A DNA stretch of 64,000 bases from Centroscyllium fabricii. Its lineage: Eukaryota. Position numbers and translations under genes: made by a program. The notes under the pieces are model-generated. The model ran no database searches. It was given only the letters and a program-made list of their open reading frames with translations, and had not been told where the DNA came from. This document shows positions 1 to 64,000 of this stretch, in pieces (the stretch's first letter is position 1; each line of letters starts with the position of its first letter). The stretch spans positions 84,072,001-84,136,000 of the forward strand of contig JBNRSN020000018.1 in the NCBI GenBank assembly GCA_051313645.2, in the 5' to 3' direction.

Positions 1-47
1 AAAATACTGCAACCAGGCAAAAGAACAAGGAATGACTGTGAAGAATG
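1..47 (+). CDS. Mucin exon, 3' part only ([15 protein letters not shown]+C)
   Basis: Open from base 1 and ends TG|gtatct; TG plus the first T of the next exon makes a Cys codon (phase 2). Confidence 0.7.
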
Positions 48-9000: not shown

Positions 9001-12000
9001 TCAGAAAAAGACCCATTTACTCCTACTCTCTGCTTTCTGTCCACCAACCAATTCTCAATCTAAGTCAATACCCTGCCCCCAATCCCATGTGCCCTAACTT
9101 TACATGCTAATCCCTTGTGTGGGACCTTGTCGACTGCCTTCTGTCTAAGTACACCACATCTACTGGTTCTCCCTGATCAATTTTCCCAGTTACATCCTCA
9201 TGGATGGACCCAGAAGCAAAGGATTGACATGCAGCTGAGCCGAGCTGGCAAAGTCCTGCACCCTCCAACTAGGACTCTCCACTGCTGCCCCTGTCTCCAA
9301 CATCTGCTGATGCTCACTTGTGAGCTGTGAGACACCAGGTGCCAACACTACTCTATGTCCTGAAGGTCCCCCTGAGGTGTGAGTGTCTGCGCTGGTTCTG
9401 GGTGCGCTTAATTCTGCTGATGCTGTGCCCTCAGAGGTTGCAGCTTCCTCTGAGGAGTCTGGATGCTCAGGCTCTTCCTCCTGTCTAGCGGGGACGGTTG
9501 TTTGCGATGGTCCTGTGGGGGAGTAAAGGAATGATTCAGAGATGTGATGCCAAGGTTACATGCACCTTGCATATTGCAGATGATCATAAGTCCATCTGTT
9601 AGATCTTCAGAATCATTATCAATGACTCATGCAATGTCAGTGAGAGAGATGGAGAACTAATCTGTCACCAGCTTGCTGTGATGTACCCATCTGTCCGACC
9701 CCCACTTGCGCTTCTTCCTCCACTCCTACGATCTCCAGGACCGCCTCCTCCCGGGGGTGAGGTGGGCTAGTGAGGGTGGCCCTCCTCCTGTCCTCGCTCT
9801 TTCTCACTTATTGTGAGCTCTCTTTTCCTGCAATGAGGGAGACAAGTGGAGGTTGAGCGAGAATGTAGGAGTGAGTGTAGAGATTCCATAGCATAGATAC
9901 TTAGTAGGAGACAAAGATGGAGTGAGGTGGCAAGACCATATGTGTTGTCAGTTGTGTTCAAAGCATCAGAGTGATAGGGAGTGTGAGGGCTGCATGGTTG
10001 AATAGTTATGTGAGTGTGAGCATAGAGAGAGAGGGAATGGGTAAGGGTGCATGGATGTGAGTGTCAAGTGGGATGTGGAGGAAGAGATTGCTGAAGCTGA
10101 GTGCTGGTGAGCAAAGGCAATGGGGATCAGAATGAGGGTGATGGGAATTCCATCCTCACTTTTCCAGTGTGCAGAAGGTCATGAAATCTTTCCTGCACTG
10201 AATCCAGGTTCTGCGGGGTACTGATAATGAGTTGCCCGCCTCTGCCACCTGGATACACACAGCCTGCTGAGGAGACGTCTTCCTCCCTGAAGAAGGGAAG
10301 AGCACCTCTTTATGAGCTCTTGCTCCTTCAACTAAAGCTTGCAGGGCCACATCATCAAACCTGAAATGCACCAGCAACGATGACATCATATTGTGTGACT
10401 TTCTGACTGGAAATAGTCAATTGCCAAGGGTTCCCACATGCTGGAAATCAATTGGCCAATTGAGCCAAAAATGCGTGAGGCTCCCAGGCCCTTTAGGATT
10501 CGTGTGGGAAACTTGACCCGCTGGAAACCGACCAATTCCCCACACCTGAGGGAAAATTTACCCGTGTGTGTCAGGGCTGAGTGAGTGTGTCGGGGTTAAG
10601 GCGGAGGGTGGAGAGAGGGCGTTATGTCTCACCATTCACTGGAACTCACTCAACACCTTCAAAGGTGTTCACAAATCTGTCCAAGAAGGCAAACTGTCGA
10701 AAATAAAGATGTCAATGCTTGATAACATATTTACAGAAACTTTACATGAACATTGCATAAAACACACAGGTGCCTACCCTTGTGGGTAAGGGCCATTAAA
10801 TAGTTGTATTTTCTCTCTACTAAAAGAATTTTATTGAGTAGACTTAGAAATGAATAAATTTCATTTTCATATTTTCTGTGCTCGGCTATGTGCAGCAGAA
10901 AAGTAAGTTTTAAAACCTGAAACAGACTCAGAGCCTCAGCGTGCAGTGTAACAGGTTGAAATGTTTTTCCTGCTCTATAGAAACTACGACACCAGAAGTG
11001 ACACCGATTATCACTACGTCTATCACCAGCTACACTCCTGGTAAGTGACAGCGGTTTTATACCTTGCACCAAGTCTGTCTCCACAGTGGATTCTTTCTAA
11101 CTCCATGTGGTCTGTCTTTGAGGAGGTAACAAAACACAGCTTTCATTTTTACATCTTAGATATTTATTTCTAACTGTTTGCTTTAGAAATATTTGTATCT
11201 CTGGTCATTACCTGGTAACTTATTGGGCAACTTTTAGGAACTTGTGCTCCTGACATAACATTTAGCGAATGTGATGCAAATCAGAAATTTGATGCCAATT
11301 GGAGGATTATTGTGCGATGTGCATTTACTCGCATGCTCATGTTCCCTTTCTGAGCCCCCGGCAAGCGAAGCTTCGAGCAAGATAGGTGTATTATAGATTC
11401 TTATTTATTGCCAGTTATCAAAATTATTCGTCACACAATGTCAACACTAAGGTTGTAAAACCATATCCAGGAATGAGAGAAAGTCATGTAGACAATCCAT
11501 CTCACCCCATCATACAGGTTCAGCTGCAAAACCCTATTGGACTATTCCTCCCCATACCCAGCCCTAGTACAGGGCTCACCAGTTTTTGTTTCGATGCCCA
11601 GTAGAAATTCGAGATGGGCGGCCTCTGGGCAGTCGTTTCTTTTTTAGAATGACTTTCCCTCCGCCACTGCTGCCCTTGGAAGCCGATGAAAATCACCCCT
11701 TGATCTTTCCAATGATGAGTGTAAAACTAACATGATAAAACAATTTGATGCAAGATCAGTCATAGAGTCAAATGTTGTGCTGGCTTGATATTCTTCGCAC
11801 CATTGTGGTGAAATTTTGTAACTAGAATATGAAAAAGTATTTTGCAATCTGTATGGAAAAGCCATCAACCTTAGATAAGCTGTTATGTATTCATGATGTT
11901 CCGGGCTAGCATAGGGCTCTCCTGCATTGTAAGCCAATATTCTGTCCACAAACATATCAAGAAAGTGACAAATGCATCAGTGAACATGGCCAGCAATTTC

Positions 12001-15000
12001 ATATCTCTTCCCACTGAATAGAAACAGCAGCAGGGCATGTATCTCAATATTGTGGTGAAGGTTCCTGCCATAACATTGAAATGACAGGACCTCCCACTGA
12101 CCTACATACTCTGGTCAGGTCAGCTCTGGAGGGCCCTGGGAGGTGTGACCCTGGTATAATCGCCAGGGTTGCTGCCCGAGTATTTTTTGAGACACTGTTT
12201 ATCTGGACAGCTGAGGTCAGTATGGATCTGTCTATTGTAAGAAGTTTCCACTGGCCATTGAAAACTCATATTTCCAAGAACTCCATTAACAGCTCGATCA
12301 AATCTATCTGACAATCCCAGACACTCTTATACTTGTGGAAATGATGTTCCTACTCTAACGGCCATGAGCTAGTTGTATTCTCTGTCAGCTCAGATAATGG
12401 TATTGAGTAGATTTAGATACAAGTGTATAGATTTAATTTTCGCAACTTTTGTGCTCGTCAATGTGAAGCAGGAAAGTACGTTTTTAAACCTATTACTGAC
12501 TCAGAGCCTCAGCGTGCAGTGTAACAGGTTGGAATGTTTTTCCTGCTCTATAGGAACTACATCACCAGAAGTGACACCGATTATCACTACGTCTACTGTT
12601 AAGTTCGGTCCGTTCAGTCTCCTTTGACAATAATCAAGCCGGACACCTTCATCTCATCCAAAGTTAGTTTATTGAGTGCTCAGAGACAGATCCCCAACAA
12701 GCTACAAGAATCTCAACAGACTCTTCGCTTGAAGAGAATAGGTCTAACCCTTTCCCTTCAAGCTCGACTTTATAAGACAAAGGAATGAAGTGATGTCACC
12801 AGCAGTCTCTAGATATCACATGATATCCAAGAAACTGGTCAGAGGTTTTTCAAGAATCAGGTCACCTGATTTCCCGGAAACTGGTCACAGGCTTTTCAAC
12901 AATCAGGTCACCTGATTTCCCGGAAACTGGTCACAGGCTTCTCAAGAATCCTTAGGTTTAGTTTAAGGAGGAAAGGCAAAGCAAAGAAGTACAAACTCAG
13001 TTACTGATGTAGTCCATTTCCACACTACCACCAGCTACACTCCTGATAAGTGACATCGGTTTTATACCTTGCACCAAGTCTGTCTCCACAGTGGATTGTT
13101 TCTAACTCCAGGTGGTTTGTCATTGAGGAGGTAACAAAACATGGCTTTCATTTTTACATGCTAAATGTTCCTTTCCAATTGTTTGCTTTGCAACTGTTTG
13201 TATCTCTGGTCATTAGGTTGTAATTTATAGGGCCGCTTTTAGGAAATTGTGCTCCTGTCATAATGTGTAGCGGGATGTGGTGCAATTCAGAAATTCAACG
13301 CCTATTGAAGGATTATGTTGCGATTTGCATTTACTCGCATGCACATGTTCCTGTTCTGCGTCCCCGGCAAGCGAAGCTCCAAGCAAGAAAGGTGTATTAT
13401 AGATTCTTATTTAATGCCACATTTTCAGTGATCAAAATTATTTGTAACACAATGTCAACACTAAGGTTGTAAAACCATATCCAGGAATGAGAGAAAGTCA
13501 TGTAGACAATCCATCTCACCCCATCATACAGATTCAGCTGCAAAACACCATTGGACTATCCCTCACTGTACCCAGCCCTAGTACAGGGCTCGCCAGTTTT
13601 TGTATCGATGCCCAGTAGAAATTCGAGATGGGTGGCCTCTGGGCAGTCGGTTCTTTGGTAGAATGACTTTCCCTCCACCACTGCTGCCCTTGGAAGCCGA
13701 TGAAAATCACCCCTTGATCTTTCAAATGATGAGTGTAAAACTAACATGATAAAACAATTTGATGCTAGATCAGTCATAGAGTCAAATGTTGTGCTGGCTT
13801 GATATTCTTCGCACCATTGTGATGAAATTGTGTAACTAGAATATGAAAAAGTATTTTGCAATCTGTATGGAAAAGCCATCAACCTTAGTGATGCACAATC
13901 AATTACTACCAGTCGATGGTCAGATGTAATCGAGGCTTTTATTAACATAGAACTGGACACAGATCCGATGATCTTCCAAGCCAGAGTGAGAGCGCTCAGG
14001 TGTGCTCGCACTCTTATACCTAGTGGGCGGAGCCTGGGGAGGAAGCCAAGGAGTGGTGTCCTCCCAGGTGAGTCCTCCCTGGCAAGAAGGCATTACAGTA
14101 CAATTACAGGGAGGGGACACAGGGGGGAGACATATATACAATATATACAAACAGTGGTTTACCACATTCACCCCCTGTTTAAAAATTTAATGTCGGGGGT
14201 GTACAATCTTTATTCTCAGAGGTTAAGTCTTTCTGGTGGTCTGGCCTGCCGACGCGACCGTCGCAGTGCAGGTCTTGGAGTTGATCCTGGGGTTGTCGGC
14301 CGTGCTGGTACCAGTGGTTGTAGGACTTCCGGCGGTGTGATATCCTCCGAAGTCGGTGGTGGTGCAGTCGTGTAGGGGTGGGTGTTGTGCATCATTCCGT
14401 CCCGAGTTTCCGGCGTGCCGTCCACTGGAGCTGTAAAAGAACCAGACGACAGCGTCTCGTGAAGGGGGATGGTGGTGGGGGGGGTCGGTGGTCTCTGGGG
14501 CACCCAATGCGCAAGGTCTCTAATGGAGACCGTGTCCTCCCACCCGTCTGGGAATGCCATGTAGGCGTACTGGGGGTTGGCATGGAGGAGCTGTACCCTT
14601 TCGACCAGGGGGGTCTGTCTTGTGGGCCCTCACGTGTCTCCGGAGCAAGACAGGCCCGGGGGACGTCTGCCATGCTGGCAGCAACGTCCCGGATGCAGAC
14701 TTCCTGGGGAAGCAAAACATCCACTCGTGAGGGGTGGCATTGGTGGCGGTGCAGAGCAGTGACCTAATGGAGTGGAGGGCATCTGGGAGAACCTCCTGCC
14801 AGCGGGAGACGGGGAGGCCCCTGGACCGCAGGGCGAGGCTGATGGCCTTTCAGACGGTGCCGTTCTCCCGCTCAATGTGCCCGTTGCCCCGGAGGTTGTA
14901 GCAAGTGATCCTGCTCGTTGCAATCCCTTTGGACAGCAGGTACTGGCGCAGCTTGTCACTCATGAATGACGACCCCCTGTCTGTGTGAATATAGTTGGGG

Positions 15001-18000: not shown

Positions 18001-21000
18001 CGGCCTTTTGCTGGGCATCGGGAAACAAAATGGCCGGCCTGGCCACAGTACAGACAGAGATTCCCCTGGTGGCATCGTTCACGCTCCTCTAATGAGAGAC
18101 TGGTGCGACCCAACTGCATCGGTTCGGGGCCCTCTGACTGTGACCTTGCTGTAGCAGTAGGCCTGGGTGCCACGAAAATCTCTTGAGATCGGTTCGGAGG
18201 AGGTCGACCAGTCGTTCCCAGTCGTCTCTCACGTCTCCGCGCCTGGATACGGAGGTAAATCCTGGTGGCAAGCCTAATTAGTTCATCCAGGTTGGAGGGG
18301 AGATCATAGGAGACCAGTTCATCCTTGATGTACTCTGCAAGCCCATGGAGAAAAACGTCACATAATGCAGCAGAGTTCCAATCACTCTGACGAGCTCTGA
18401 TTCGGATATCTATGGAATAGTCGGCCACTGTCTGATTACCCTGGCTCAGATTCATGAGTCCCCGACCTGCGTCAGAGCCGTAGGTCACCATGCCGAACAC
18501 CTTTCTTAATTCGATGGCAAACATCTGGAAGAAAGAGCAAGCCAGACTCTCTCTCTCCCACTCGGTGGTTCCCCAGAGGCGAGCTCTTCCTGTTAGGTGG
18601 TTAATAGCAAAGTCTACCTTTGCTGCCTCATCGGCAAAGGTGTGGGGCTGCAATGCAAAAAGAATGGAACAGTTTGTGAGGAAGGGATTGCATTCCTCAG
18701 GTTTTCCAGTGTGAGGCCTTGTGGGTGAGGCATGGGTGCCGACACCGATGCTGGAGCAAGAACTGGCGGTGGTGGGATCCCTTCCGGGTCCGTAGCTGCC
18801 CGCTGGATCAGGGCGGCGGTTAGCCGCTCCATTTGAGCATATAGCTTCCCCAAGGCCTGCCCCTGGTGCCTTAGGGCGCCCTCGATCTGCGCAAGGCAAT
18901 CCGGTGTGTCTGCTGGGTCCATTTCTGGCCAGATCGTACTGTAATGGGTGTAGGTTGAGCCCAAATGCAATACACCGAAACAGCATATGTAGAAGTAAAC
19001 GACTTTATTTCTGAGCAGTAGAAGACACTGGTAACAGCGGGTCGATATATAGGCAGAAAGTTCACGGAGGCAACAAGTCCAAAACAGAGGTCAGGCAGAA
19101 GAGAATCCAAATACCAAAAACAGATCAATACCGGGTAGTCAGTCCACGAAAGCGACAAATCCAAACGGGGTCAGGCAGAAGAGAATCCAAATTCCCAAAA
19201 CAGATCAATACCGGGTAGTCAGTCCACAAAAGCGACAAATCCAAACGGGGTCAGGCAGAAGAGAGTCCACCATCCAGAAAGCAGGTCAGTATCTCGAACA
19301 GGCAGGATAAGAGAGCTAAGAACAAACACAGGTACCTCAGTCAGAAAGCACAAAATGATCTGGCAACCACTGGGTAGAAAACATGGGTTTAAATACAGCT
19401 CCTGATTGTCACTGGTGACTCTCGGCTGTTCAATCAGGTGCGAGCAGTAGAGCTAACGAGGTGGTTGCCAAGCAGAGCTAATAAGGTAGTTGCCAGTTAA
19501 AGAGGAAGAGCCAACCTATGACACTTGGAGGTGTGACCCTGGTATAATCGCCAGGGTTGCGGCCCGAGTATTTTCAGAGACACTGTTTATCTGGACAGCT
19601 GAGGTCAGTATGGATCTGTCTATTGTAAGAAGTTTCCACTGGCCATTGAAAACTCATGTTTCCTGGAACTCCATTAACAGCACGATCAAATCTATCTGAC
19701 AATCCCAGACACTCTTATACTTGTGGAAATGATGTTCTTACTCTAAGGGCCATGAGCTAGTTGTATTCTCTGTCAGCTCAGATAATTGTATTGAGTAGAT
19801 TTAGAGACAAGTGTATAGATTTAATTTTTGCAACTTTTGTGCTCGGCCATGTGCAGCAGGAAAGTACGTTTTTAAACCTATTACTGACCCAGAGCCTCAG
19901 CGTGCAGTATAACATGTTGAAATGTTTTTCCTGCTCTATAGAAACTACATCACCAGAAGTGACACCGATTATCACTACGTCTACCATCAGCTACACTCCT
20001 GGTAAGTGACACTGGTTTTATACCTTGCACCAATCCTGCCTCCACAGTGGATTGTTTCTAACTCCATGTGGTCTGTCATTGAGGAGATAACAAAACACAG
20101 CTTTCATTTTACATCTCAGATATTTATTTATAATTGTTTGCTTTAGAAATATTTGTATCTCTGGTCATTACCTGGTAACTTATAGGGCAACCTTTAGGAA
20201 CTTGTGCTCCTGACATAACATTTAGCGGAATGTGATGCAAATCAGAAATTTGATGCCAATTGAAGGATTATTGTGCGATGTGCATTTACTCGCATGCCCA
20301 TGTTCCCTTTCTGAGCCCCCGGCAAGCGAAGCTTCGAGCAAGAAAGGTGTATTATAGATTCTTATTTAGCGCCATTTTTTCAGTTATCAAAATTATTCGT
20401 CACACAATGTCAACACTAAGGTTGGAAAACCAAATCCAGGAATGAGAGAAAGTCGTGTGGACAATCCATCCACCCCATCATACAGGTTCATCTGCAAAAC
20501 TCTATTGGACTATTCCTCACCGTACCCAGCCCTAGTACAGGGCTCGCCAATTTTTGTTTCGATGCCCAGTAGAAATTCGAGATGGGCGGCCTCTGGGCAG
20601 TCGGTTCTTTGTTAGAATGACTTTCCCTCTGCCACTGCTGCCCTTGGAAGCCGATGAAAATCACCCCTTGATCTTTCAAATGATGAGTGTAAAACAATTT
20701 GATGCTAGATCAGTCATAGAGTCAAATGTTGTGCTGGTTTGATATTCTTCGCACCATTGTGGTGAAATTGTGTAACTAGAATATGAAAAAGTATTTTGCA
20801 ATCTGTATGGAAAAGCCATCAAATTTAGAATAGCTTTTATGTGCTCATGATGTTCCGGGCTAACATAGGGCTCTCCTGCATTATAAGCCAATATTCTGTC
20901 CACACACATATCAAGAAAGTGACAAATGCATCAGTGGACATGGCCAGCAATTTCATATCTCTTCCCACTGAATAGAAACAGCAGCAGATCATGTGTCTGG

Positions 21001-24000
21001 ATATTGTGGTGAATGATCCTGCCATAATATTGAAATGAAAGCACCTCCCACTGACCTACATAGTCTGGTCAGGTCAGCTCTGGAGTTCCCTGGGAGGTGT
21101 GACCCTGGTATAATCGTCAGGGTTGCTGCCCGAGTATTTTCAGAGACACTGTTTATCTGGACAGCTGAGGTCAGTATGCATCTGTCTATTGTAAGAAGTT
21201 TCCACTGGCCATTGAAAACTCAGGTTTCAGAAACTCCAATAACAGCTCGATCAAAACTATCTGACAATCCCAGACACTCTTATACTTGTGGAAATAATGT
21301 TCTTACTCTAAGGGCCATGAGCTAGTTGTATTCTCTGTCAGCTCAGACAATTTTATTGAGTAGAGTTAGATACAAGTGCATAGATTTAGTTTTTGCAACT
21401 TTTGTGCTCGGCTATGTGCAGCAGGAAAGTACGTTTTTAAACCTGATACAGGCTCAGAGCCTCAGCGTGCAGTGTAACAGGTTGAAATGTTTTTCCTGCT
21501 CTATAGAAACGACATCACCAGAAGTGACACCGATTATCACTACGTCTACCACCAGCTACACTCCTGGTAAGTGACAGCGGTTTTATACCTTGCACCAAGT
21601 CTGTCTCCACAGTGGATTCTTTCTAACTCCATGTGGTCTGTCATTGAGGAGGTAACAAAACACAGCTTTCATTTCTACATCTTGGATATTTAATTTTAAT
21701 TGTTTGCTTTAGAAATATTTGTATCTCTGGTCATTACCTTGTAACTTATTGGGCAACTTTTAGGAACCTGTGCTCCTGACATAATATTTAGCGAATGTGA
21801 TGCAAATCAGACATTTGATGCCAATTGAAGGATTATTTTGCGATGTGCATTTACTCGCATGCTCATGTTCCCTTTCTGAGCCCCCGGCAAGCGAAGCTCC
21901 AAGCAAGAAAGGTGTATTATAGATTCTTATTTATTGCCACGTTTTCAGTTATCAAAATTATTCCTCACAAAATGTCAACACTAAGGTTGGAAAACCATAT
22001 CCAGGAATGAGAGAAAGTCATGTAGCTGATCCATCTCACCCCATCATACAGGTTCAGCTGCAAAACACTATTGGACTATTCCTCCCCATACCCAGCCCCA
22101 GTACAGGGCTCGGCAGTTTTTGTTTCGATGCCCAGTAGAAATTCGAGATGGGCGGCCTCTGGGCAGTCGGTTCTTTGTTAGAATTACTTTCCCTTCGCCA
22201 CTACTGCCCTTGGAAGCCGCTGAAAATCACTCCTTGATCTTTCAAATGATGAGTGTAAAACGAACATGATAAAACAATTTGATGCTAGATCATCATAGAG
22301 TCAAATGTTGTGCTGGCTGGATATTCTTTGCACCATTGTTGTGAAATTGTGTAACTAGAATATGAAAAAGTATTTTGCAATGTGTATGGAAAAGCCATCA
22401 ACCTTAGAATAGCTGTTATGTGTTCATGAAGTTCCGGGCTAGCATAGGGCTCTCCTGCATTATAAGCCAATATTCTGTCCACACACATATCAAGAAAGTG
22501 ACAAATGCATCAGTGGACATGACCAGCAATTACATATCTCTTCCCATTGAATAGAAACAGCAGCAGGGCATGTGTCTGAATATTGTGGTGAAGGTTCCTG
22601 CCATAATATTGAAATGACAGGATCTCCAACTGACCTACATACTCTGGTCAGGTCAACTCTGGAGGGCCCTGGGAGGTGTGACCCTGGTATAATTGCCAGG
22701 GTTGCTGCCCGATTATTTTCAGAGACACTGTTTATCTGGACAGCTGAGGTCAGTATGGATCTGTCTATTGTAAGAAGTTTCCAATGGCCATTGAAAACTC
22801 ATGTTTCCTGGAACTCTATTAACAGCACGATCAAATCTATCTGACAATCCCAGACACTCTTATACTTGTGGAAATGATGTTCTTACTCTAAGGGCCATGA
22901 GCTAGTTGTATTCTCTGTCAGCTCAGATAATTTTATTGAGTAGATTTAGATACAAGTGTATAGATTTAATTTTTGCAACTTTTGTGCTCGGCTATGTGCA
23001 GCAGGAAAGTATGTTTTTAAACCTATTACTGACCCAGAGCCTCAGCGTGCAGTGTAACATGTTGAAATGTTTTTCCTGCTCTATAGAAACTACATCACCA
23101 GAAGTGACACCGATTATCACTACGTCTACCATCAGCTACACTCCTGGTAAGTGACACTGGTTTTATACCTTGCACCAATCCTGCCTCCACAGTGGATTGT
23201 TTCTAACTCCATGTGGTCTGTCATTGAGGAGATAACAAAACACAGCTTTCATTTTTACATCTCAGATATTTATTTATAATTGTTTGCTTTAGAAATATTT
23301 GTATCTCTGGTCATTACCTGGTAACTTATAGGGCAACCTTTAGGAACTTGTGCTCCTGACATAACATTTAGCGGAATGTGATGCAAATCAGAAATTTGAT
23401 TCCAATTGAAGGATTATTGTGCGATGTGCATTTACTCGCATGCCCATGTTCCCTTTCTGAGCCCCCGGCAAGCGAAGCTTCGAGTAAGAAAGGTGTATTA
23501 TAGATTCTTATTTATTGCCATTTTTTCAGTTATCAAAATTATTCGTCACACAATGTCAACACTAATGTTGGAAAACCAAATCCAGGAATGAGAGAAAGTC
23601 GTGTGGACAATCCATCCACCCCATCATACAGGTTCATCTGCAAAACTCTATTGGACTATTCCTCACCGTACCCAGCCCTAGTACAGGGCTCGCCAGTTTT
23701 TGTTTCGATGCCCAGTAGAAATTCGAGATGGGTGGCCTCTGGGCAGTCGGTTCTTTGTTAGAATGACTTTCCCTTCGCCACTGCTGCCCTTGGAAGCCGA
23801 TGAAAATCACCCCTTGATATTTCAAATGATGCGTGTAAAACTAACATGATAAAACAATTTGATGCTAGATCAGTCATAGAGTCAAATGTTGTGGTGGCTT
23901 GATATTCTTCGCAACATTGTGGTGAAATTGTGTAACTAGAATATGAAAAAGTACTTTGCAATCTGTATGGAAAAGCCATCAACCTTAGAATAGCTTTTAT

Positions 24001-27000
24001 GTGTTCATGAAGTTCTGGGCTATCATAGGGCTCTTCTGCATTATAAGCCAATATTCTGTCCATACACATATCAAGAAAGTGACAAATGCATCAGTGGACA
24101 TGGCCAGCAATTTCATATCTCTTCCCACTGAATAGAAACAGCAGCAGGGCATGTGTCTGAATATTGTGGTGAAGGTCCCGGCCATAATATTGAAATGACA
24201 GGACCTCCCACTAACCTACATACCCTGGTCAGGTCAGCTCTGGAGGGCCCTGGGAGGTGTGACCCTGGTATAATCGCCAGGGTTGCTGCCCGAGTATTTT
24301 CAGAGACACTGTTTTTCTGGACAGCTGAGGTCAGTATGGATCTGTCTATTGTAAGAAGTTTCCACTGGCCATTGAAAACTCATGTTTCCAGGAACTCCAT
24401 TAACAGCACGATCAAATCTATCTGACAATCCCAGACACTCTTATACTTGTGGAAATGATGTTCTTACTCTAAGGGCCATGAGCTAGTTGTATTCTCTGTC
24501 AGCTCAGATAATTTTATTGAGTAGATTTAGAGACAAGTGTATAGATTTAATTTTTGCAACTTTTGTGCTCGGCTATGTTCAGCAGGAAAGTAAGTATTTA
24601 AACCTATTACTGACTCAGAGCCTCAGCGTGCAGTCTAACAGGTTGAAATGTGTATCCTACTCTATAGAAACTACAGGACCAGAAGTGACACCGATTATCA
24701 CTGCGTCAACCAGCAGCTACACTCCTGGTAAGTGACAGCGGTTTTATACCTTGCACCAAGTCTGTCTCCACAGTGGATTGTTTCTAAATCCATGTGGTCT
24801 GCCATTGAGGAGATAACAAAACATGGGTTTCATTTTTACATCTTAGATATTTATTTCTAATTGTTTGCTTTAGAAATATTTGTATCTCTGGTCATTACCT
24901 GGTAACTTATAGGGCAACCTTTAGGAACTTGTGCTCCTGACATAGCATTTAGCGGAATGTGATGCAAAACAGAAATTTGATGCCAATCGAAGGATTATTT
25001 GGCGATGTGCATTTACTCGCATGCTCATGTTCACTTTCTGAGCCCCCGGCAAGCGAAGCTCCAAGCAAGAAAGGTGTATTATAGATTATTATTTATTACC
25101 ACGTTTTCAGTTTTGAAAATTATTCATCACACAATGTCAACACTAAGGTTGTAAAACCATATCCAGGAATGAGAGAAAGTCATGTAGACAATCCATCCAC
25201 CCCATCATACAGGTTCAGCTGCAAAACACTATTGGACTATTCCTCACCGTACCCAGCCCTGGTACAGGGCTCACCCGTTTTTGTTTCGATGCCCACTAGA
25301 AATTCGAGATGGGCGGCCTCTGGGCAGTCGGTTCTTTTTTAGAATGACTTTCCCTCTGCCACTGCTGCCCTTGGAAGCCGATGAAAATCACCCCTTGATC
25401 TTTCAAATGATGAGTGTAAAACAATTTGATGCTAGACCAGTCATAGAGTCAAATATTGTGCTGGTTTGATATTCTTTGCACCATTGTGGTGAAATTGTGT
25501 AACTAGAATATGAAAAAGTATTTTGCAATCTGTATGGAAAAGCCATCAAACTTAGAATAGCTTTTATGTGCTCATGATGTTCCGGGCTAACATAGGGCTC
25601 TCCTGCATTATAAGCCAATATTCTGTCCACACACATATCAAGAAAGTGACAAATGCATCAGTGGACATGGCCAGCAATTTCATATCTCTTCCCACTGAAT
25701 AGAAACAGCAGCAGATCATGTGTCTGGATATTGTGGTGAATGATCCTGCCATAATATTGAAATGAAAGCACCTCCCACTGACCTACATAGTCTGGTCAGG
25801 TCAGCTCTGGAGTTCCCTGGGAGGTGTGACCCTGGTATAATCGTCAGGGTTGCTGCCCGAGTATTTTCAGAGACACTGTTTATCTGGACAGCTGAGGGCA
25901 ATATGGATCTGTCTATTGTAAGACGTTTCCACTGGCCATTGAAAACTCATGTTTCAGAAACTCCATTAACAGCTCGATCAAAACTATCTGACAATCCCAG
26001 ACACTCTTATACTTGTGGAAATAATGTTCTTACTCTAAGGGCCATGAGCTAGTTGTATTCTCTGTCAGCTCAGACAATTTTATTGAGTAGATTTAGATAC
26101 AAGTGCATAGATTTAGTTTTTGCAACTTTTGTGCTCGGCTATGTGCAGCAGGAAAGTACGTTTTTAAACCTGATACAGACTCAGAGCCTCAGCGTGCAGT
26201 GTAACAGGTTGAAATGTTTTTCCTGCTCTATAGAAACGACATCACCAGAAGTGACACCGATTATCACTACGTCTACCACCAGCTACACTCCTGGTAAGTG
26301 ACAGCGGTTTTATACCTTGCACCAAGTCTGTCTCCACAGTGGATTCTTTCTAACTCCATGTGGTCTGTCATTGAGGAGGTAACAAAACACAGCTTTCATT
26401 TCTACATCTTGGATATTTAATTTTAATTGTTTGCTTTAGAAATATTTGTATCTCTGGTCATTACCTTGTAACTTATTTGGCAACTTTTAGGAACTTGTGC
26501 TCCTGACATAATATTTAGCGAATGTGATGCAAATCAGACATTTGATGCCAATTGAAGGATTATTTTGCGATGTGCATTTACTCGCATGCTCATGTTCCCT
26601 TTCTGAGCCCCCGGCAAGCGAAGCTCCAAGCAAGAAAGGTGTATTATAGATTCTTATTTATTGCCACGTTTTCAGTTATCAAAATTATTCGTCACACAAT
26701 GTCAACACTAAGGTTGGAAAACCATATCCAGGAATGAGAGAAAGTCATGTAGCTGATCCATCTCACCCCATCATACAGGTTCAGCTGCAAAACACTATTG
26801 GACTATTCCTCCCCATACCCAGCCCTAGTACAGGGCTCGGCAGTTTTTGTTTCGATGCCCAGTAGAAATTCGAGATGGGCGGCCTCTGGGCAGTCGGTTC
26901 TTTGTTAGAATTACTTTCCCTTCGCCACTACTGCCCTTGGAAGCCGCTGAAAATCACTCCTTGATCTTTCAAATGATGAGTGTAAAACGAACATGATAAA

Positions 27001-45000: not shown

Positions 45001-48000
45001 TTTAGATACAAGTGTATAGATTTAATTTTTGCAACTTTTGTGCTCGGCTATGTGCAGCAGGAAAGTACGTTTTTAAACCTATTACTGACCCAGAGCCTCA
45101 GCGTGCAGTGTAACATGTTGAAATGTTTTTCCTGCTCTATAGAAACTACATCACCAGAAGTGACACCGATTATCACTACGTCTACCATCAGCTACACTCC
45201 TGGTAAGTGACACTGGTTTTATACCTTGCCCCAATCCTGCCTCCACAGTGGATTGTTTCTAACTCCATGTGGTCTGTCATTGAGGAGATAACAAAACACA
45301 GCTTTCATTTTTACATCTCAGATATTTATTTATAATTGTTTGCTTTAGAAATATTTGTATCTCTGGTCATTACCTGATAACTTATAGTGCAACCTTTAGG
45401 AACTTGTGCTCCTGACATAACATTTAGCGGAATGTGATGCAAATCAGAAATTTGATGCCAATTGAAGGATTATTGTGCGATGTGCATTTACTCGCATGCC
45501 CATGTTCACTTTCTGAGCCCCTGGCAAGCGAAGCTTCGAGCAAGAAAGGTGTATTATAGATTCTTATTTAGCGCCACGTTTTCAGTTTTGAAAATTATTC
45601 ATCACACAATGTCAACACTAAGGTTGTAAAACCATATCCAGGAATGAGAGAAAGTCATGTCGACAATCCATTCACCCCATCATACAAGTTCAGCTGCAAA
45701 ACACTATTGGACTATTCCTCACCGTACCCAGCCCTAGTACAGGGCTCACCCGTTTTTGTTTCGATGCCCACTAGAAATTCGAGATGGGCGGCCTCTGGGC
45801 AGTCGGTTCTTTTTTAGAATGACTTTCCCTCTGCCACTGCTGCCCTTGGAAGCCGATGAAAATCACCCCTTGATATTTCAAATGATGCGTGTAAAACTAA
45901 CATGATAAAACAATTTGATGCTAGATCAGTCATAGAGTCAAATGTTGTGCTGGCTTGATATTCTTCGCAACATTGTGGTGAAATTGTGTAACTAGAATAT
46001 GAAAAAGTATTTTGCAATCTGTATGGAAAAGCCATCAACCTTAGAATAGCTTTTATGTGTTCATGAAGGTCTGGGCTATCATAGGGCTCTTCTGCATTAT
46101 AAGCCAATATTCTGTCCATACACATATCAAGAAAGCGACAAATGCATCAGTGGACATGGCCAGCAATTTCATATCTCTTCCCACTGAATAGAAACAGCAG
46201 CAGGGCATGTGTCTGAATATTGTGGTGAAGGTCCTGGCCATAATATTGAAATGACAGGACCTCCCACTAACCTACATACCCTGGTCAGGTCAGCTCTGGA
46301 GGGCCCTGGGAGGTGTGACCCTGGTATAATCGCCAGGATTGCTGCTCGAGTATTTTCAGAGACACTGTTTTTCTGGACAGCTGAGGTCAGTATGGATCTG
46401 TCTATTGTAAGAAGTTTCCACTGGCCATTGCAAACTCATGTTTCCAGGAACTCCATTAACAGCACGATCAAATCTATCTGACAATCCCAGACACTCTTAT
46501 ACTTGTGGAAATGATGTTCTTACTCTAAGGGCCATGAGCTAGTTGTATTCTCTGTCAGCTCAGATAATTTTATTGAGTAGATTTAGAGACAAGTGTATAG
46601 ATTTAATTTTTGCAACTTTTGTGCTCGGCTATGTTCAGCAGGAAAGTAAGTATTTAAACCTATTACTGACTCAGAGCCTCAGCGTGCAGTCTAACAGGTT
46701 GAAATGTGTATCCTGCTCTATAGAAACTACAGCACCAGAAGTGACACCGATTATCACTGCGTCAACCAGCAGCTACACTCCTGGTAAGTGACAGCGGTTT
46801 TATACCTTGCACCAAGTCTGTCTCCACAGTGGATTGTTTCTAACTCCATGTGGTCTGCCATTGAGGAGATAACAAACCACGGGTTTCATTTTTACATCTT
46901 AGATATTTATTTCTAATTGTTTGCTTTAGAAATATTTGTATCTCTGGTCATTACCTGGTAACTTATAGGGCAACTTTTAGGAACTTGTGCTCCTGACATA
47001 ACATTTAGCGGAATGTGATGCAAAACAGAAATTTGATGCCAATCGAAGGATTATTTTGCGATGTGCATTTACTCGCATGCTCATGTTCACTTTCTGAGCC
47101 CCCGGCAAGCGAAGCTCCAAGCAAGAATGGTATATTATAGATTCTTATTTATTACCACGTTTTCAGTTTTGAAAAATATTCATCACACAATGTCAACACT
47201 AAGGTTGTAAAACCATATCCAGGAATGAGAGAAAGTCATGTAGACAATCCATTCACCCCATCATACAGGTTCAGCTGCAAAACACTATTGGACTATTCCT
47301 CACCGTACCCAGCCCTGGTACAGGGCTCACCCGTTTTTGTTTCGATGCCCACTAGAAATTCGAGATGGGCGGCCTCTGGGCAGTCGGTTCTTTTTTAGAA
47401 TGACTTTCCCTCTGCCACTGCTGCCCTTGGAAGCCGATGAAAATCACCCGTTGATCTTTCAAATGATGAGTGTAAAACAATTTGATGCTAGATCAGTCAT
47501 AGAGTCAAATGTTGTGCTGGTTTGATATTCTTTGCACCATTGTGGTGAAATTGTGTAACTAGAATATGAAAAAGTATTTTGCAATCTGTATGGAAAAGCC
47601 ATCAAACTTAGAATAGCTTTTATGTGCTCATGATGTTCCGGGCTAACATAGGGCTCTCCTGCATTATAAGCCAATATTCTGTCCACACACATATCAAGAA
47701 AGTGACAAATGCATCAGTGGACATGGCCAGCAATTTCATATCTCTTCCCACTGAATAGAAACAGCAGCAGATCATGTGTCTGGATATTGTGGTGAATGAT
47801 CCTGCCATAATATTGAAATGAAAGCACCTCCCACTGACCTACATAGTCTGGTCAGGTCAGCTCTGGAGTTCCCTGGGAGGTGTGACCCTGGTATAATCGT
47901 CAGGGTTGCTGCCCGAGTATTTTCAGAGACACTGTTTATCTGGACAGCTGAGGGCAATATGGATCTGTCTATTGTAAGACGTTTCCACTGGCCATTGAAA

Positions 48001-51000
48001 ACTCATGTTTCAGAAACTCCATTAACAGCTCGATCAAAACTATCTGACAATCCCAGACACTCTTATACTTGTGGAAATAATGTTCTTACTCTAAGGGCCA
48101 TGAGCTAGTTGTATTCTCTGTCAGCTCAGACAATTTTATTGAGTAGATTTAGATACAAGTGCATAGATTTAGTTTTTGCAACTTTTGTGCTCGGCTATGT
48201 GCAGCAGGAAAGTACGTTTTTAAACCTGATACAGACTCAGAGCCTCAGCGTGCAGTGTAACAGGTTGAAATGTTTTTCCTGCTCTATAGAAACGACATCA
48301 CCAGAAGTGACACCGATTATCACTACGTCTACCACCAGCTACACTCCTGGTAAGTGACAGCGGTTTTATACCTTGCACCAAGTCTGTCTCCACAGTGGAT
48401 TCTTTCTAACTCCATGTGGTCTGTCATTGAGGAGGTAACAAAACACAGCTTTCATTTCTACATCTTGGATATTTAATTTTAATTGTTTGCTTTAGAAATA
48501 TTTGTATCTCTGGTCATTACCTTGTAACTTATTTGGCAACTTTTAGGAACTTGTGCTCCTGACATAATATTTAGCGAATGTGAATCAAATCAGACATTTG
48601 ATGCCAATTGAAGGATTATTTTGCGATGTGCATTTACTCGCATGCTCATGTTCCCTTTCTGAGCCCCCGGCAAGCGAAGCTCCAAGCAAGAAAGGTGTAT
48701 TATAGATTCTTATTTATTGCCACGTTTTCAGTTATCAAAATTATTCGTCACACAATGTCAACACTAAGGTTGGAAAACCATATCCAGGAATGAGAGAAAG
48801 TCATGTAGCTGATCCATCTCACCCCATCATACAGGTTCAGCTGCAAAACACTATTGGACTATTCCTCCCCATACCCAGCCCTAGTACAGGGCTCGCCAGT
48901 TTTTGTTTCGATGCCCAGTAGAAATTCGAGATGGGCGGCCTCTGGGCAGTCAGTTCTTTTTTAGAATTACTTTCCCTTCGCCACTACTGCCCTTGGAAGC
49001 CGCTGAAAATCACTCCTTGATCTTTCAAATGATGAGTGTAAAACGAACATGATAAAACCATTTGATGCTAGATCATCATAGAGTCAAATGTTGTGCTGGC
49101 TGGATATTCTTCGCACCATTGTTGTGAAATTGTGTAACTAGAATATGAAAAAGTATTTTGCAATGTGTATGGAAAAGCCATCAACCTTAGAATAGCTGTT
49201 ATGTGTTCATGAAGTTCCGGGCTAGCATAGGGCTCTCCTGCATTATAAGCCAATATTCTGTCCACACACATATCAAGAAAGTGACAAATGCATCAGTGGA
49301 CATGACCAGCAATTACATATCTCTTCCCATTGAATAGAAACAGCAGCAGGGCATGTGTCTGAATATTGTGGTGAAGGTTCCTGCCATAATATTGAAATGA
49401 CAGGACCTCCCACTGACATACATACTCTGGTCAGGTCAACTCTGGAGGGCCCTGGGAGGTGTGACCCTGGTATAATCGCCAGGGTTGCTGCCCGATTATT
49501 TTCAGAGACACTGTTTATCTGGACAGCTGAGGTCAGTATGGATCTGTCTATTGTAAGAAGTTTCCACTGGCCATTGAAAACTCATGTTTCCTGGAACTCC
49601 ATTAACAGCACGATCAAATCTATCTGACAATCCCAGACACTCTTATACTTGTGGAAATGATGTTCTTACTCTAAGGGCCATGAGCTAGTTGTATTCTCTG
49701 TCAGCTCAGATAATTTTATTGAGTAGATTTAGATACAAGTGTATAGATTTAATTTTTGCAACTTTTGTGCTCGGCCATGTGCAGCAGGAAAGTACGTTTT
49801 TAAACCTATTACTGACCCAGAGCCTCAGTGTGCAGTGTAACATGTTGAAATGTTTTTCCTGCTCTATAGAAACTACATCACCAGAAGTGACACCGATTAT
49901 CACTACGTCTACCATCAGCTACACTCCTGGTAAGTGACACTGGTTTTATACCTTGCACCAATCCTGCCTCCACAGTGGATTGTTTCTAACTCCATGTGGT
50001 CTGTCATTGAGGAGATAACAAAACACAGCTTTCATTTTTACATCTCAGATATTTATTTATAATTGTTTGCTTTAGAAATATTTGTATCTCTGGTCATTAC
50101 CTGGTAACTTATAGGGCAACCTTTAGGAACTTGTGCTCCTGACATAACATTTAGCGGAATGTGATGCAAATCAGAAATTTGATGCCAATTGAAGGATTAT
50201 TGTGCGATGTGCATTTACTCGCATGCCCATGTTCCCTTTCTGAGACCCCGGCAAGCGAAGCTTCGAGCAAGAAAGGTGTATTATAGATTCTTATTTAGCG
50301 CCATTTTTTCAGTTATCAAAATTATTCGTCACACAATGTCAACACTAAGGTTGGAAAACCAAATCCAGGAATGAGAGAAAGTCGTGTGGACAATCCATCC
50401 ACCCCATCATACAGGTTCATCTGCAAAACTCTATTGGACTTTTCCTCACCGTACCCAGCCCTAGTACAGGGCTCGCCAGTTTTTGTTTCGATGCCCAGTA
50501 GAAATTCGAGATGGGCGGCCTCTGGGCAGTCGGTTCTTTGTTAGAATGACTTTCCCTTCGCCACAGCTGCCCTTGGAAGCCGATGAAAATCACCCCTTGA
50601 TATTTCAAATGATGCGTGTAAAACTAACATGATAAAACAATTTGATGCTAGATCAGTCATAGAGTCAAATGTTGTGCTGGCTTGATATTCTTCGCAGCAT
50701 TGTGGTGAAATTGTGTAACTAGAATATGAAAAAGTATTTTGCAATCTGTATGGAAAAGCCATCAACCTTAGAATAGCTGTTATGTGTTCATGAAGGTCTG
50801 GGCTATCATAGGGCTCTTCTGCATTATAAGCCAATATTCTGTCCATACACATATCAAGAAAGTGACAAATGCATCAGTGGACATGGCCAGCAATTTCATA
50901 TCTCTTCCCACTGAATAGAAACAGCAGCAGGGCATGTGTCTGAATATTGTGGTGAAGGTCCCGGCCATAATATTGAAATGACAGGACCTCCCACTAACCT

Positions 51001-54000
51001 ACATACCCTGGTCAGGTCAGCTCTGGAGGGCCCTGGGAGGTGTGACCCTGGTATAATCGCCAGGGTTGCTGCCTGAGTATTTTCAGAGACACTGTTTTTC
51101 TGGACAGCTGAGGTCAGTATGGATCTGTCTATTGTAAGAAGTTTCCACTGGCCATTGAAAACTCATGTTTCCAGGAACTCCATTAACAGCACGATCAAAT
51201 CTATCTGACAATCCCAGACACTCTTATACTTGTGGAAATCATAGAATCATAGAATCATAGAAACTTTACAGTGCGGATAAAGGCCATTCGGCCCATCCAG
51301 TCTGCACCGGCCCAGGAAACTCCTCACTATACTAACCCCATTTGCCCGCATCTGGCCCATAACCCTGTATGTTACGGTCCTTCATGTGCTGGTCCATATT
51401 TTTTTTAAATGTTGCGATGTTTTCTGCCTCCACCACCCTTACAGGCAGGGAGTTCCACACTTCCACCACCCTCTGAGTAAAGAAATTTCTCCTTACCTCC
51501 CCCCTAAACCTCCCCCCCCTAATCTTGAATCCATGTCCCCTGGTACTTGACTCTCCCACCAAGGGAAACAATGCCCCTTTATCCACCTTATCGTGTCCCC
51601 TCATGATCCTGTATACCTCGATCATGTCACCCCTCAATCTTCTCTTCTCCAAGGCAAACAACCCCAGCCTGTCCAGCCTTTCCTCGTAGCGTAAGTCCCC
51701 CAGACCAGGTATCATCCTGGTAAACCTTCTCTGCACCCTCTCCAGGGCAACCACATCCTTCCTGAAGTGCGGTGACCAGAACTGCACACAGTACTCCAGC
51801 TGAGGTCTCACCAGCGTGTTGTACAAGTTTAACATTACCTCCCTACTTTTGTACACTATGCCCTGGTTAATAAAGGCCAGAATTCCGTATGCCTTCTTAA
51901 CCACCTTGTTTACGTGTCCAGCAACCTTCAGGGAGCTGTGCACCTGTACCCCAAGGTCCCTCTATTCCTCGGTCCTACCTAACATTTTTTTGTTCATGGT
52001 ATATTCCCTTACCCCATTTGGTCTGCCGAATTGTATGACCTCGCATTTCTCTGGGTTGAACTCCATTTGCCATTTTTCTGCCCAACTAACCATTACATTT
52101 ATATCTTCCTGGAGCCTTTTACTATCTTCATCGTTATTTACCACCCTTCCAATTTTCGTATCATCAGCAAATTTGCTGATCATACCCCCTACTCCCGTGT
52201 CCAAATCATTAATGTATACTAGAAACAGTAAGGGTCCCAAAACCGATCCTTGGGGGACTCCGCTGGTTACTGGTTTCCAGTCACAGAAGCAGCCCTCTAC
52301 CATTACCCTTTGTCTCCTGTCCCCCAGCCAATTTTGAATCCACTGTGCCACGTTGCCCTGTATCCCATGTGCTTTTACCTTTGTTATCAGTCTCCTATGT
52401 GGGACTTTATCAAAAGCCTTGCTGAAGTCCATATACACCACGTCGACCGTACTCCCTTCATCCACCCTTTTTGTTACCTCTTCGAAGAATTCCAAGAGAT
52501 TAGTTAGGCACGACTTACCTTTGACGAAGCCATGTTGACTATCTCTTATCAGACCCTGCCTTTCCAAATGCAGACTGATTTTGTCCCTCAGAATTTTTTC
52601 CATTACTTTCCCCACTACAGATGTAAGACTGATTGGCCTATAGTTACCCGGTTTGTCCCTACTACCCTTTTTAAACAGGGGTACTACATTAGCCGTTCTC
52701 CAGTCCTCGGGTACCTCCCCTGACGCGAGAGAGGACCTGAAAATTTGAGACAGGGGGCCCGCAAGCTCTTCCCTGGCCTCGAACAGCAGCCTGGGGAACA
52801 TCGCGTCCGGCCCTGGTGATTTGTCTACCTTTAAGCTTCCCAAGATTTCTAGTACTTCTTCCCTTGTAATGGTAATATCCTCAATTACCCCCCCTACACT
52901 CTGTCCGATTACGATGTCGGTTCCGTCCCTCTCTCTTGTGAATACTGAAGAGAAAAATTCGTTTAGTACCTCCCCCACCGCCTCGGGCTCGACGCACAGC
53001 TTTCCGCTATCGTCCTTAATGGGCCCCACTCTTTCCCTCGTGATCCTTTTGTTTTTTATATAACTGTAAAATGCCTTAGGGTTATCCTTGATTTTGCCGG
53101 CCATTGCAATCTCATGACCCCTCTTGGCTTTTCTTATCTCCTTCTTTAATTCCCCCCTATACTTCTTATACTCCCCTAGCGCCTCCTCAGTTTTTAGCCG
53201 TTTATATTCATTGAAGGCCCCCCTTTTTTTCTTCATTAATTTACATATATCCCTAGACATCCAAGGTTCCCTTTGTTTACCTCCCCTGCCCTTGATTTTT
53301 GCAGGAACATGTTCCTCCTGTATCTTCCCGACCTTCCCTCTGAAGGCCTCCCACTGCTCTGATGCAGATCTTCCTCTGAGAAGATGGCCCCAGTCTACTG
53401 CGGCTACATCGCGCCTAATTTTAATGAAATCCGCCTTCCCCCAGTTTAGTACTTTTACCCCTGGTCCATTTTTATCCTTCTCTATTACAATCTTGAAACT
53501 AACTGAATTGTGGTCGCTATCCCCGAAGTGCTCCCCCACTGTTACCTCCTCTATCTGCCCGTCTTCGTTCCCAAGTATTAGGTCTAGTACCGCTCCCCCC
53601 CTTGTAGGTGACCCAACATATTGCTTCAAAAAACTCTCTTGGCTGCATTTTAAGAATGCTGAACCTTCCGTGCCCCTCACACTCTGACAATCCCAGTTGA
53701 TGTTGGGGAAATTAAAGTCCCCTAATATTATTACTTTGTTATTTTCGCTTATCTTCGTGATTTGCTCACATATCTTACCCTCCATCTCCCCATTACTGTT
53801 TGGTGGTCTATAATATACTCCCAGTAAGGTGCCCCCCCCCTTTTTATTTTTTACCTCCACCCATAGTGCCTCGTTTGAGGAATCATCCATTAGGTCGACC
53901 CGCCTGATGGCTGTGATTGAATCCTTAATCAGTATCGCTACCCCCCCTCCCCTTTTTCCCTCGTCTCTGTCCCGCCTGAAAATTCTATACCCCGGAATAT

Positions 54001-61742: not shown

Positions 61743-62291
61743 GTAAGTGACAGCGGTTTTCTACCTTGCACCAAGTCTGTCTCCACAGTGGATTGTTTCT
61801 AACTCCATGTGGTCTGTCATTGAGGAGGTAACAAAACACAGCTTTCATTTTTACATTTCAGATATTCCTTTCTAATTGTTTGCTTTGAAAATGTTTGTAT
61901 CTCTGGTCATTATCTTGTAATTTATAGGGTAGTTTTTAGGAAATTGTGCTCTTGACATAATGTTTAGCGGAACGGGTGCAAATCAGGAATTTAACGCAAT
62001 TGATGGATTATTTTGCGATGTGCATTAACTCACATGCCCAAGTTCCTGTTCTGTGCCCCTGACATGCGAATCTCCAAGTGCGAAGGATATATTATATATA
62101 TATACTTGTTGAATAACATGTTTTCAGTTATCAAAATTATTTGTCACACAATGTCAGTACTGAGGTTGTAAAACCATATCACGGAATGGGAAAGTGACGT
62201 AGTCGATCCCTCTCACTCCATCCTACAGGTTCAGCTGTGAAGCCCGATTGGACTACTCCTCACCATTCCGGGCCCAAGTAGAGGGCTCGCC

Positions 62292-62361
62292 AATAACAAC
62301 AGAAAATGCCGGTAATACTCAGCAGGCCAGGCAGCATCCGTGGAGAGAGAAACAGAGTTAA
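62292..62361 (-). mobile_element. Penelope-like terminal repeat fragment (same family as 5578-5679)
   Basis: aataacaacagaaaatgccggtaatactcagcaggccaggcagcatccgtggagagagaaacagagttaac. Confidence 0.7.
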
Positions 62362-64000
62362 CGGCCGGAAATTTCCCAGAATGGCGGGGAACTGGCGGGG
62401 ATTGGTTGGGGCGGGTTTCTGTCCCGCCCGATAAAATGCCTGCGTTTCCCACGAGATTTTAGTCTAAGTACCCAATTAATTCCCCGCCTGTGGGAAGCCT
62501 TCTCAATCACCGATTTCCAGTCAGAAAGTCGCACAGTATGACGTCAGAATTCGGGTTTCTTTTAATAAACACAGCTCGCCTCCCGCACTGCTCAGCATTC
62601 TACAACCTTCAGTAGAATGGCAGAGCGTGAGGGTGCTGCATCGGGCAGCGCGAGGGGACGACCCGCCCCGAAATTTGATGATGCCTCACTCGACGCATTA
62701 CTCGAGGGGGCAACGACCCATAGGGAGGTTCTCTTCCCCTCCTCAGGGAGGAAGGGACCTCCCTCACAGACCAAGGCTGCATGGCAGTAGGTGGCTGAGG
62801 GGGTCAGCTCCTTGGGCACAACACCCCAGTCCTGGCTGCAGTGTCGCAAGAGATTGCATGACCTTCATCGCACTGCGAAAGTAAGTATTCATTTCCCCTC
62901 ACCCTCAATCTCATCCCCTTCACCTCTCCTCACCAAAACTTATCTTCACCATTCCCTTCCTCCACATCCCACTTGCCCATCACATCCAAGCAACCTTACC
63001 CATTCCCTCTCTATCTATGCTCACACTCACGGTCCTTTCCCTCCATTCAGCCCTCACACTCCTTCTCACTCTCATGCTTGCTGCACATCTGGCACCACAC
63101 AGGGAGAGCCTTTGGACTTGCAGGCTCACTGCATCTTTGTCACCCTCCAACGAACTTTGCTGGTCACTCGCTGCACCAACTCCTTCCTTCTCACTCAACC
63201 TCCACTTCTCTCCCTCATTGCAGGAAAAGACAGCCGCCAACAAGCGGCACAGTGCCGGGACCAGAGGAGGACCCCCCTCCATCCAGCAGCTCGCCACCTG
63301 GGAGGAGGCTGTTCAAGACCTCGTTGGGGAGGGGCAAGCCCTGGGAGTGGGTGACGACGAGGCAGGCATGCAATCTCAAGCTGGTGACAGCATGGTTTCA
63401 TTTTTTCTCTTAGAACTAACACATGAGACTGGCACAATGAATGTAAAGGCACTGCAGAGGAAGCTCTGCTCAGCTCCTGAATGCTATCTGTATGTAACCT
63501 TGCTGACATATCTCTAACCTCTTCCTTTACTGCCCCACAGGCCCATCCGCAGCTGGACGGCCAAGCAGAGCTGAGGACGAGGCCGCCCCTGTTCAGTCCT
63601 CAGAGGAACCTGCCACCTCTGAGGGCGCACCGTCAGCACCACAGACTCCACCCGGCACCAGCGCAGATACTAGCACCTCGGTGGGCCCCCCTAGAGCTAC
63701 ATATGACTTGTCACCGGGTGATTCACACAACACAAGTGAGCCTCAGCAGATTGTGGAGACAGGGACAGCATTGCAGAGTTCTAGTCGGAGGGCGCAGGAC
63801 TCTGCCAGCTTAGCTAAGCTACATGTCGACCCAGCGCCTTTGGATTCATCAGGCAGAGGACACATGATGGGACTCCAGACACAGATGCAGGCGTCTCTGA
63901 CAGGTTTTGTCTCCCAGGTAGCTGCGAGTGTCATGCGAATGGAGGAGTCTGTCGCAAGCATGAGAAGCGTCTTTGCGGAGTCAGTGGCGCATGATCGCAT
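62362..64000 (+). mobile_element. PIF/Harbinger-like transposon, left arm; continues past the window
   Basis: Terminus GGCCGGAAATTTCC followed by a spliced Myb/SANT-like gene. Confidence 0.75.
62617..64000 (+). pseudogene. Harbinger Myb/SANT-like DNA-binding protein gene (exons 62617-62880, 63224-63383, 63541->64000), one stop codon
   Basis: RPAPKFDDASLDALL...AAWQ*VAEGVSS...SWLQCRKRLHDL|gtaagt; exon 2 EKTAANKRH..GTRGGPP; exon 3 open to the window end. Confidence 0.78.

Follow-up and report, generated by a model that had tools for sequence, protein, structure and literature searches.

Introduction

In chicken Muc13, the closest precedent for the locus described here, a PTS region of at least 12 repeats of 20 amino acids is carried by nearly identical exons, one for each repeat, with support from ESTs, and the 2006 description by Lang, Hansson and Samuelsson proposes that its length varies by recombination and splicing and that the design is ancestral in vertebrates (PMC1552070). 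Central domains spread over many exons are also described for gel-forming mucins: Otogl/MucXS of Xenopus tropicalis combines PTS and Cys-rich repeats in such a domain (PMC5789918), and the PTS region of chicken MUC2 lies on exons 32-45, with four CysD domains and repeated genomic elements between the exons (PMC3549977). A splicing polymorphism is described for FIM-C.1 (PMC7177656). Human canonical mucins carry their repeats in one large exon (PMC13345508, PMC5789918), as a sequence-only reading of the present DNA had stated for MUC2, MUC5AC and MUC5B. That reading also named MUC19 as a multi-exon precedent, but human MUC19 is cited with an uninterrupted central exon in PMC13345508.

The shark gene resembles chicken Muc13 in devoting one near-identical exon to each 20-residue repeat (PMC1552070), but Muc13 is a transmembrane SEA mucin, whereas the shark gene is of the secreted VWD/CysD/cystine-knot kind, with 39 repeat exons, CysD cassettes and a large PTS exon. 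With chicken MUC2 it shares a gel-forming type and a multi-exon PTS region with CysD domains (PMC3549977), although the chicken repeat is 69 amino acids long in ten copies, compared with 20 amino acids in 39 copies here. Otogl/MucXS is described without typical CysD (PMC5789918), while the shark gene has PF13330 exons. Human MUC2, MUC5AC and MUC5B share the order D1-D2-D'-D3, PTS with CysD, D4 and cystine knot, but have one large repeat exon where the shark gene has mini-exons plus a large exon. The principle was published in 2006 for chicken Muc13, in accordance with the earlier view that it is not new (PMC1552070); what is new here is the scale, the CysD cassette exons, the exon-centred homogenisation and the presence of two designs side by side. 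The suspicion that this locus may be undescribed agrees with our search, in which titles and abstract openings, with subscription papers and supplements (that of PMC4948705 is possibly relevant) outside its scope, contained no description of shark mucin exon arrays.

Results and Discussion

The repeat exon array

The window, i.e. the whole stretch of 64,000 nucleotides that was analysed, corresponds to C689:84,072,001-84,136,000 of a 7.2 Gb genome, so that window position x equals C689:84,072,000+x, and it was examined together with 200 kb on either side, 464 kb in all without a single N. A mucin PTS region with 24 stop- and indel-free 60-nt exons of phase 1-1 had been claimed for it, and a scan of the window for the exact pattern AG/60 nt/GTAAGT returned the same 24 exons (10,981-61,742), each in phase 1-1 and none with a stop or indel, which amounts to 24 x 20 = 480 amino acids. 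The features of the array are as follows.

10981..61742, + strand: 24 intact 60-nt PTS exons, phase 1-1, at 10981, at 19942-49870 (20 copies, about 1.57 kb apart) and at 56661, 58227 and 61683
12554..13045, + strand: dead 25th copy, its exon split by a solo-LTR-like insert (12597-13024) and its donor changed from GT to AT
19942..51242, + strand: young core array, a three-unit higher-order repeat A-B-C (1580/1581/1566 bp)
61743..64000, + strand: intron running out of the window
80,094-169,925, + strand: 15 further intact 60-nt exons downstream of the window

The extent originally assigned, 10981..61742, therefore covers only the 24 copies in the window, while the array goes on to window position 169,925, reaching 39 intact copies with four CysD exons interspersed; an acceptor-side remnant lies at 169,421. 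In total the array occupies 159 kb, of which 3.8 kb is coding, and its 39 exons encode 780 amino acids with a P/T/S content of 67%. All 39 donors are identical and of consensus type (GTAAGTGA), and the acceptors are TAG in 38 exons and CAG in one.

The statement that every unit of about 1.57 kb carries one exon is valid for the core, where units are spaced at 1,565-1,581 bp, but not throughout, as the 25th copy is broken and 16 of the 39 exon-to-exon intervals exceed 1.9 kb. The insert in the broken copy at 12,554 is 428 bp long with TG...CA ends and a 4-bp duplication, and the copy contains stops. Two inserts in the window were scanned for open reading frames and contained a gag ORF and LINE ORFs. 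The former, of about 5.6 kb (13,889-19,523), has TG...CA ends and a gag-like ORF (PF03732, Ty3-capsid-like) and lies in the unit that follows the broken exon; that unit lacks about 260 bp. The latter, on the minus strand at 51,243-56,447, has an endonuclease, RVT_1 and an 8-bp terminal microsatellite, and is adjoined by a GC-rich 160-bp tandem repeat (55,649-56,440). The idea that insertions avoid the exons was dropped, as one exon struck in about 16 lengthened intervals is the expectation from an exon share of about 4%.

The host mucin gene

Proteins annotated as 'mucin-2-like' in Carcharodon and Heptranchias, and a relative of the C-terminal part, were aligned to the locus, which gave a predicted gene model of 88 exons and 3,962 amino acids with GT-AG at all 87 introns and no internal stops, running from an ATG at C689:83,933,508 (window -138,492) to a stop at window position 221,765. 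Its parts are, in order, a putative signal peptide, D1-D2-D'-D3, a 32-nt exon, 47 exons of phase 1-1, a 2,747-nt exon, D4 and a cystine-knot-type end. Apart from the array itself they are placed as follows.

From -138,492, upstream of the window, + strand: signal peptide and VWD-C8-TIL exons for D1, D2 and D'-D3
1..47, + strand: last part of a D3-region exon that starts 95 bases upstream of the window
1839..1870, + strand: 32-nt exon closing the D3 region, phase 2 in and phase 1 out
3695..3736, + strand: single-copy 42-nt PTS exon, phase 1-1, predicted from splice sites and composition only
6836..6892, + strand: single-copy 57-nt PTS exon, phase 1-1, predicted in the same way
77,820; 99,922; 130,053; 154,008, + strand: four 357-nt CysD exons, phase 1-1, among the downstream copies
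173,492; 180,176, + strand: two single PTS exons, predicted in the same way
187,601-190,347, + strand: 2,747-nt CysD and PTS exon, entered in phase 1
Up to the stop at 221,765, + strand: 12 exons for D4 and the cystine-knot-type end

The 32-nt exon leaves in phase 1, which fixes the phase of the array. All 47 central exons (39 repeats, four CysD exons and the four single PTS exons) are of phase 1-1, and the 2,747-nt exon that follows contains a fifth CysD and a conventional repeat region of 806 amino acids with a P/T/S content of 79%. The 60-nt exons share one reading frame with the VWD exons before them and the D4/cystine-knot exons after them and hence are not a product of chance, and the earlier claim of a mucin PTS region with one 20-residue repeat per symmetric exon is sustained by their place in this 88-exon model.

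The same reading had proposed searching the flanking exons for VWD, C8, TIL and cystine-knot domains, and such domains were found on both sides. The N-terminal exons are 82% identical over 1,156 amino acids (D1-D3) to residues 41-1196 of the Heptranchias mucin-2-like protein, which contains three VWD, three C8 and TIL, and C8 matches were also obtained at the shark locus itself; identity to the Carcharodon mucin-2-like protein over D1-D3 is 66%. The closeness to Heptranchias points to a shark or near relative as the source of the DNA. The C-terminal part is 62% identical over 545 amino acids to a skate-type protein that carries PF00094, PF08742 and PF00007. The C8 of the fourth VWD-C8 region was located at C689:84,270,836, and in a PF00007 profile search of the genome the gene's own cystine knot was absent among the matches listed. 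CysD corresponds to PF13330 (E 1.9e-15), with five matches at the locus, and the N-terminus is hydrophobic, as in relatives. The gene thus has the three VWD-C8-TIL regions, the PTS region with CysD inside it and the fourth VWD-C8 with cystine knot of a gel-forming mucin of MUC2/MUC5 type, and in addition the near-identical symmetric exon for each repeat that defines the Muc13 type of design. Further upstream, at about -179,800 to -169,500 of the extended window, long ORFs on the minus strand form a single-copy block that does not resemble the common transposons around it.

Conservation of exons and introns

Mismatches were counted against one reference unit, with intron sites taken more than 100 nt from the exon. 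In the 17 outer, older copies 3.9% of exon positions (40/1,020) differ, compared with 14.8% of intron positions (2,712/18,295), and among 1,200 far-intron windows 1.75% reach the conservation of the exon. The contrast is not clear in the 22 young core copies (3.3% in exon, 4.8% in intron, with 20% of intron windows equally conserved). Over all 39 copies the exon has 14 minor alleles at 60 sites (0.23 per site) and no gap columns, versus 912 minor alleles at 1,279 far-intron sites (0.71) and 194 gap columns; as the copies are mutually related these counts are not independent, and p-values of this comparison overstate its significance. This constraint is real; it centres on the exon and acts at the level of nucleotides. 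The 60-nt flanks on the two sides of the exon are nearly as uniform as the exon (0.30 and 0.33 minor alleles per site), synonymous exon sites are conserved as well (0.30), and selection at the protein level was not detected among the 39 copies (nonsynonymous 9/43.3 and synonymous 5/16.7 sites, dN/dS-like ratio 0.69, p = 0.54). It is likely that exon-centred gene conversion and/or constraint from splicing, more than selection for the amino acids, keeps the exon and about 60 nt of flank on each side alike. Another stretch, in the intron 480-550 nt upstream of the exon (window about 22,540-22,610 and its equivalents), is conserved like the exon among old copies and is possibly a regulatory element or a conversion tract.

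Probable expansion and contraction of the array

The A-B-C repeat of the core has a period of about 4.73 kb, and units are 97.5-99.5% identical within a class (98.7-99.5% for A-class units against the reference A unit) and about 93.5-94.5% identical between classes. Two units, at 19942 and 41997, are B-to-C hybrids: of 77 diagnostic columns, the first 19 have the B state in both units and 54-55 of the other 58 have the C state, and both units switch in the same intronic interval, alignment columns 595-734. These hybrids are the footprint of unequal exchange inside the intron, and so provide a record of the unequal crossover that had earlier been postulated. It is possible that both go back to a single exchange that was duplicated afterwards.

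The CysD exon comes as a cassette of about 790 bp whose position is constant within an intron that is otherwise homologous; 34 of 40 intervals have the cassette-free junction, four have the cassette and two neither. Because all central exons are of phase 1-1, the frame is kept whenever a unit is gained or lost, whether or not the cassette goes with it, and the spacing of CysD changes.

Relatives in other elasmobranchs and public reads

Automatic RefSeq models of 'mucin-2-like' and '5AC-like' proteins, several of them incomplete, were available from Heptranchias (XP_067860687.1), Carcharodon (XP_041059043.1), Cetorhinus (XP_078410757.1) and Leucoraja (XP_055509500.1). D1-D3 identity of such models is 66-82%, and short, mostly E-initial modules alternate with CysD in them, the exon boundaries of the relatives being read from protein repeats and not from genomes. 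The 11 Heptranchias modules compared are in register with the 20-residue repeat and agree with it at 13-14 of 20 positions, the Heptranchias CysD module has the same ends as the 357-nt CysD exon, and proteins of Carcharodon, Cetorhinus and skate have comparable short modules between CysD domains. Judged by these protein alignments, the array gene and the elasmobranch models, which are automatic protein predictions, belong to one subfamily and are alike in their short modules and CysD. Short relatives that would reach across CysD into its neighbours were also sought; none of the five candidates obtained had E <= 0.001. Three RefSeq isoforms from skate were considered as a sign of exon skipping and rejected, as they differ C-terminally and not by dropped repeats.

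The contigs of four public runs, all from one study whose sample may be the assembly's own, cover the whole intron and lack an exon-to-exon joint, i.e. they behave as DNA and are uninformative on expression. The 40 read variants listed from them all match assembly copies, and these types of unit are therefore present in public DNA data. Seven Logan proteins of 679 amino acids belong to the C-terminal part of the skate-type gene and come from contigs of 2.3-2.7 kb, while the same stretch spans 13 exons here; the short contigs suggest that the skate-type relative is transcribed and spliced.

Functional interpretation

We consider it very likely that the array forms the central repeats of an intact, probably functional gene for a secreted gel-forming mucin. 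Every 60-base exon is predicted to be joined in frame by splicing and to contribute one 20-residue, likely O-glycosylated repeat, and the length of the repeat region likely changes by unequal exchange of whole units. Each exon would have been duplicated together with its intron, one exon plus intron making one unit; splicing would join the exons in frame, adding 20 residues apiece; the protein would be expressed and O-glycosylated on its repeats and, as known from the family, would polymerize via D3 and the cystine knot; unequal exchange between units would let the repeat region grow and shrink. Most exons are probably included in most transcripts.

Regulated or stochastic skipping of symmetric exons, by which one animal would make mucins of varied length and CysD content, would be an addition to this explanation and not a replacement. 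The uniform phase of the central exons would permit it, and the same idea was proposed for chicken Muc13 (PMC1552070), but with uniform donors and acceptors nothing singles out one copy for skipping and the internal repeat region is common to the three skate isoforms up to residue 2,283, so that we regard skipping as possible but rather doubtful. Long cDNA would reveal the order of repeats through the A-B-C variants, and length control by skipping is therefore testable at this locus. The lack of exon-specific conservation in the core copies, together with a dN/dS-like ratio not significantly below 1, could also be read as the mark of a mostly neutral intronic macrosatellite, in which the young expansion in the window includes some 60-nt copies that are used and others that were carried along by recent duplication. 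However, the core copies do not differ from the older, conserved ones in exons and splice sites, and Heptranchias has runs of the same module, which makes such a macrosatellite very improbable. It is even harder to believe in a recent pseudogene or in a copy number created by assembly: the near-identity of A-class units would allow collapse or over-expansion, yet the 464 kb contain no N, the frame is intact across 88 exons, units have private differences, and the unit variants are present in the DNA runs. The reading as a functional mucin gene means that a coding domain can hide in an apparent macrosatellite. It also adds gel-forming mucins of sharks, and of rays as far as the protein pattern shows, to those with a multi-exon design, which bears on the 2006 proposal of an ancestral design.

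The mucin gene cluster

CysD and C8 searches point to about nine mucin genes at C689:83.9-88.5 Mb, the count being taken from the D3-type C8 matches listed. The array gene is on the plus and the others on the minus strand, and the genes are about 80% identical in D3. Central regions of eight of them were examined, some in part; mini-exon arrays were found in five and large PTS exons in three, the array gene having both.

C689:85.07-85.18 Mb: array paralogue, 29 PTS and 9 CysD exons in 110 kb
C689:84.72-84.76 Mb: array paralogue, 10 PTS and 2 CysD exons in 40 kb
C689:88.40-88.45 Mb: array paralogue, 17 PTS and 4 CysD exons in 50 kb
C689:85.54-85.74 Mb: array paralogue, 55 PTS mini-exons and no CysD
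C689:84.39, 86.13 and 86.73 Mb: genes with large PTS exons

Array paralogues have the same design in different sequences: introns showed no homology to the array gene in the eight regions compared, and the only matches were CysD exons, in three of the regions, at 77-79%. In the paralogue with 55 mini-exons, tandem acceptors separated by 3 nt give 27 of the exons a length of 60 or 63 nt, which permits length variation by one residue. The paralogues at C689:84.62-84.85 and 84.97-85.24 Mb have equal scores for several domains and near-identical exons; either they were duplicated recently or the assembly has placed two haplotypes in tandem. Outside the cluster, a more distant mucin at C557:1.68-1.70 Mb has its PTS and CysD in one open frame of 6,060 codons, a mammal-like design; D3 regions of the cluster genes, about 80% alike, are about 50% alike to it. 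A D3 tree was made to see whether the mini-exon genes form a clade; its nine rows, with no human row, were stitched from tblastn matches with some intron overhang and left out the genes labelled B and C and the 87.7-Mb gene, and it has no starred branch, the bootstrap leaving the matter unsettled.

Both PTS designs thus exist within one cluster and within one gene. One could speculate that the cluster of sharks and rays is a modular kit, in which the germline gains and loses symmetric PTS and CysD cassette exons and transcripts skip them, so that the length of the chain and the spacing of CysD are tuned independently, while exon-centred conversion holds cassettes identical as introns drift and fill with transposons, and a gene with both designs is a natural intermediate. 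We think this unlikely as a whole, but if it were true, a gene with both mini-exons and a mammalian-type single-exon repeat would let one ask which came first.

Scores do not single out MUC2 among the human mucins, the Heptranchias relative reaching 931 bits with MUC2, 919 with MUC5AC, 884 with MUC5B and 608 with VWF. AP2A2 lies in the MUC2/MUC6 neighbourhood. The neighbourhood of a MUC2 orthologue, with a head-to-head MUC6 and AP2A2 or TOLLIP nearby, was not recovered here: within 62 kb upstream of the ATG there is no minus-strand VWD match that could be a MUC6 partner, C689 has no C8 between 49.5 and 84.0 Mb among the matches listed, and the synteny markers PF02296 and CUE matched on other contigs, none of them placing the cluster. 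MUC6 and Tollip are described as neighbours of MUC2 in PMC4948705, which counts one Muc2 and one Muc5 in ghost shark, as against about nine related gel-forming mucin genes here, and makes no mention of exon arrays in its accessible text. Among the matches listed, C1014, C1566, C224 and C823 have long tandem runs of C8 at regular spacing, which probably belong to genes like FCGBP or zonadhesin in which units are repeated.
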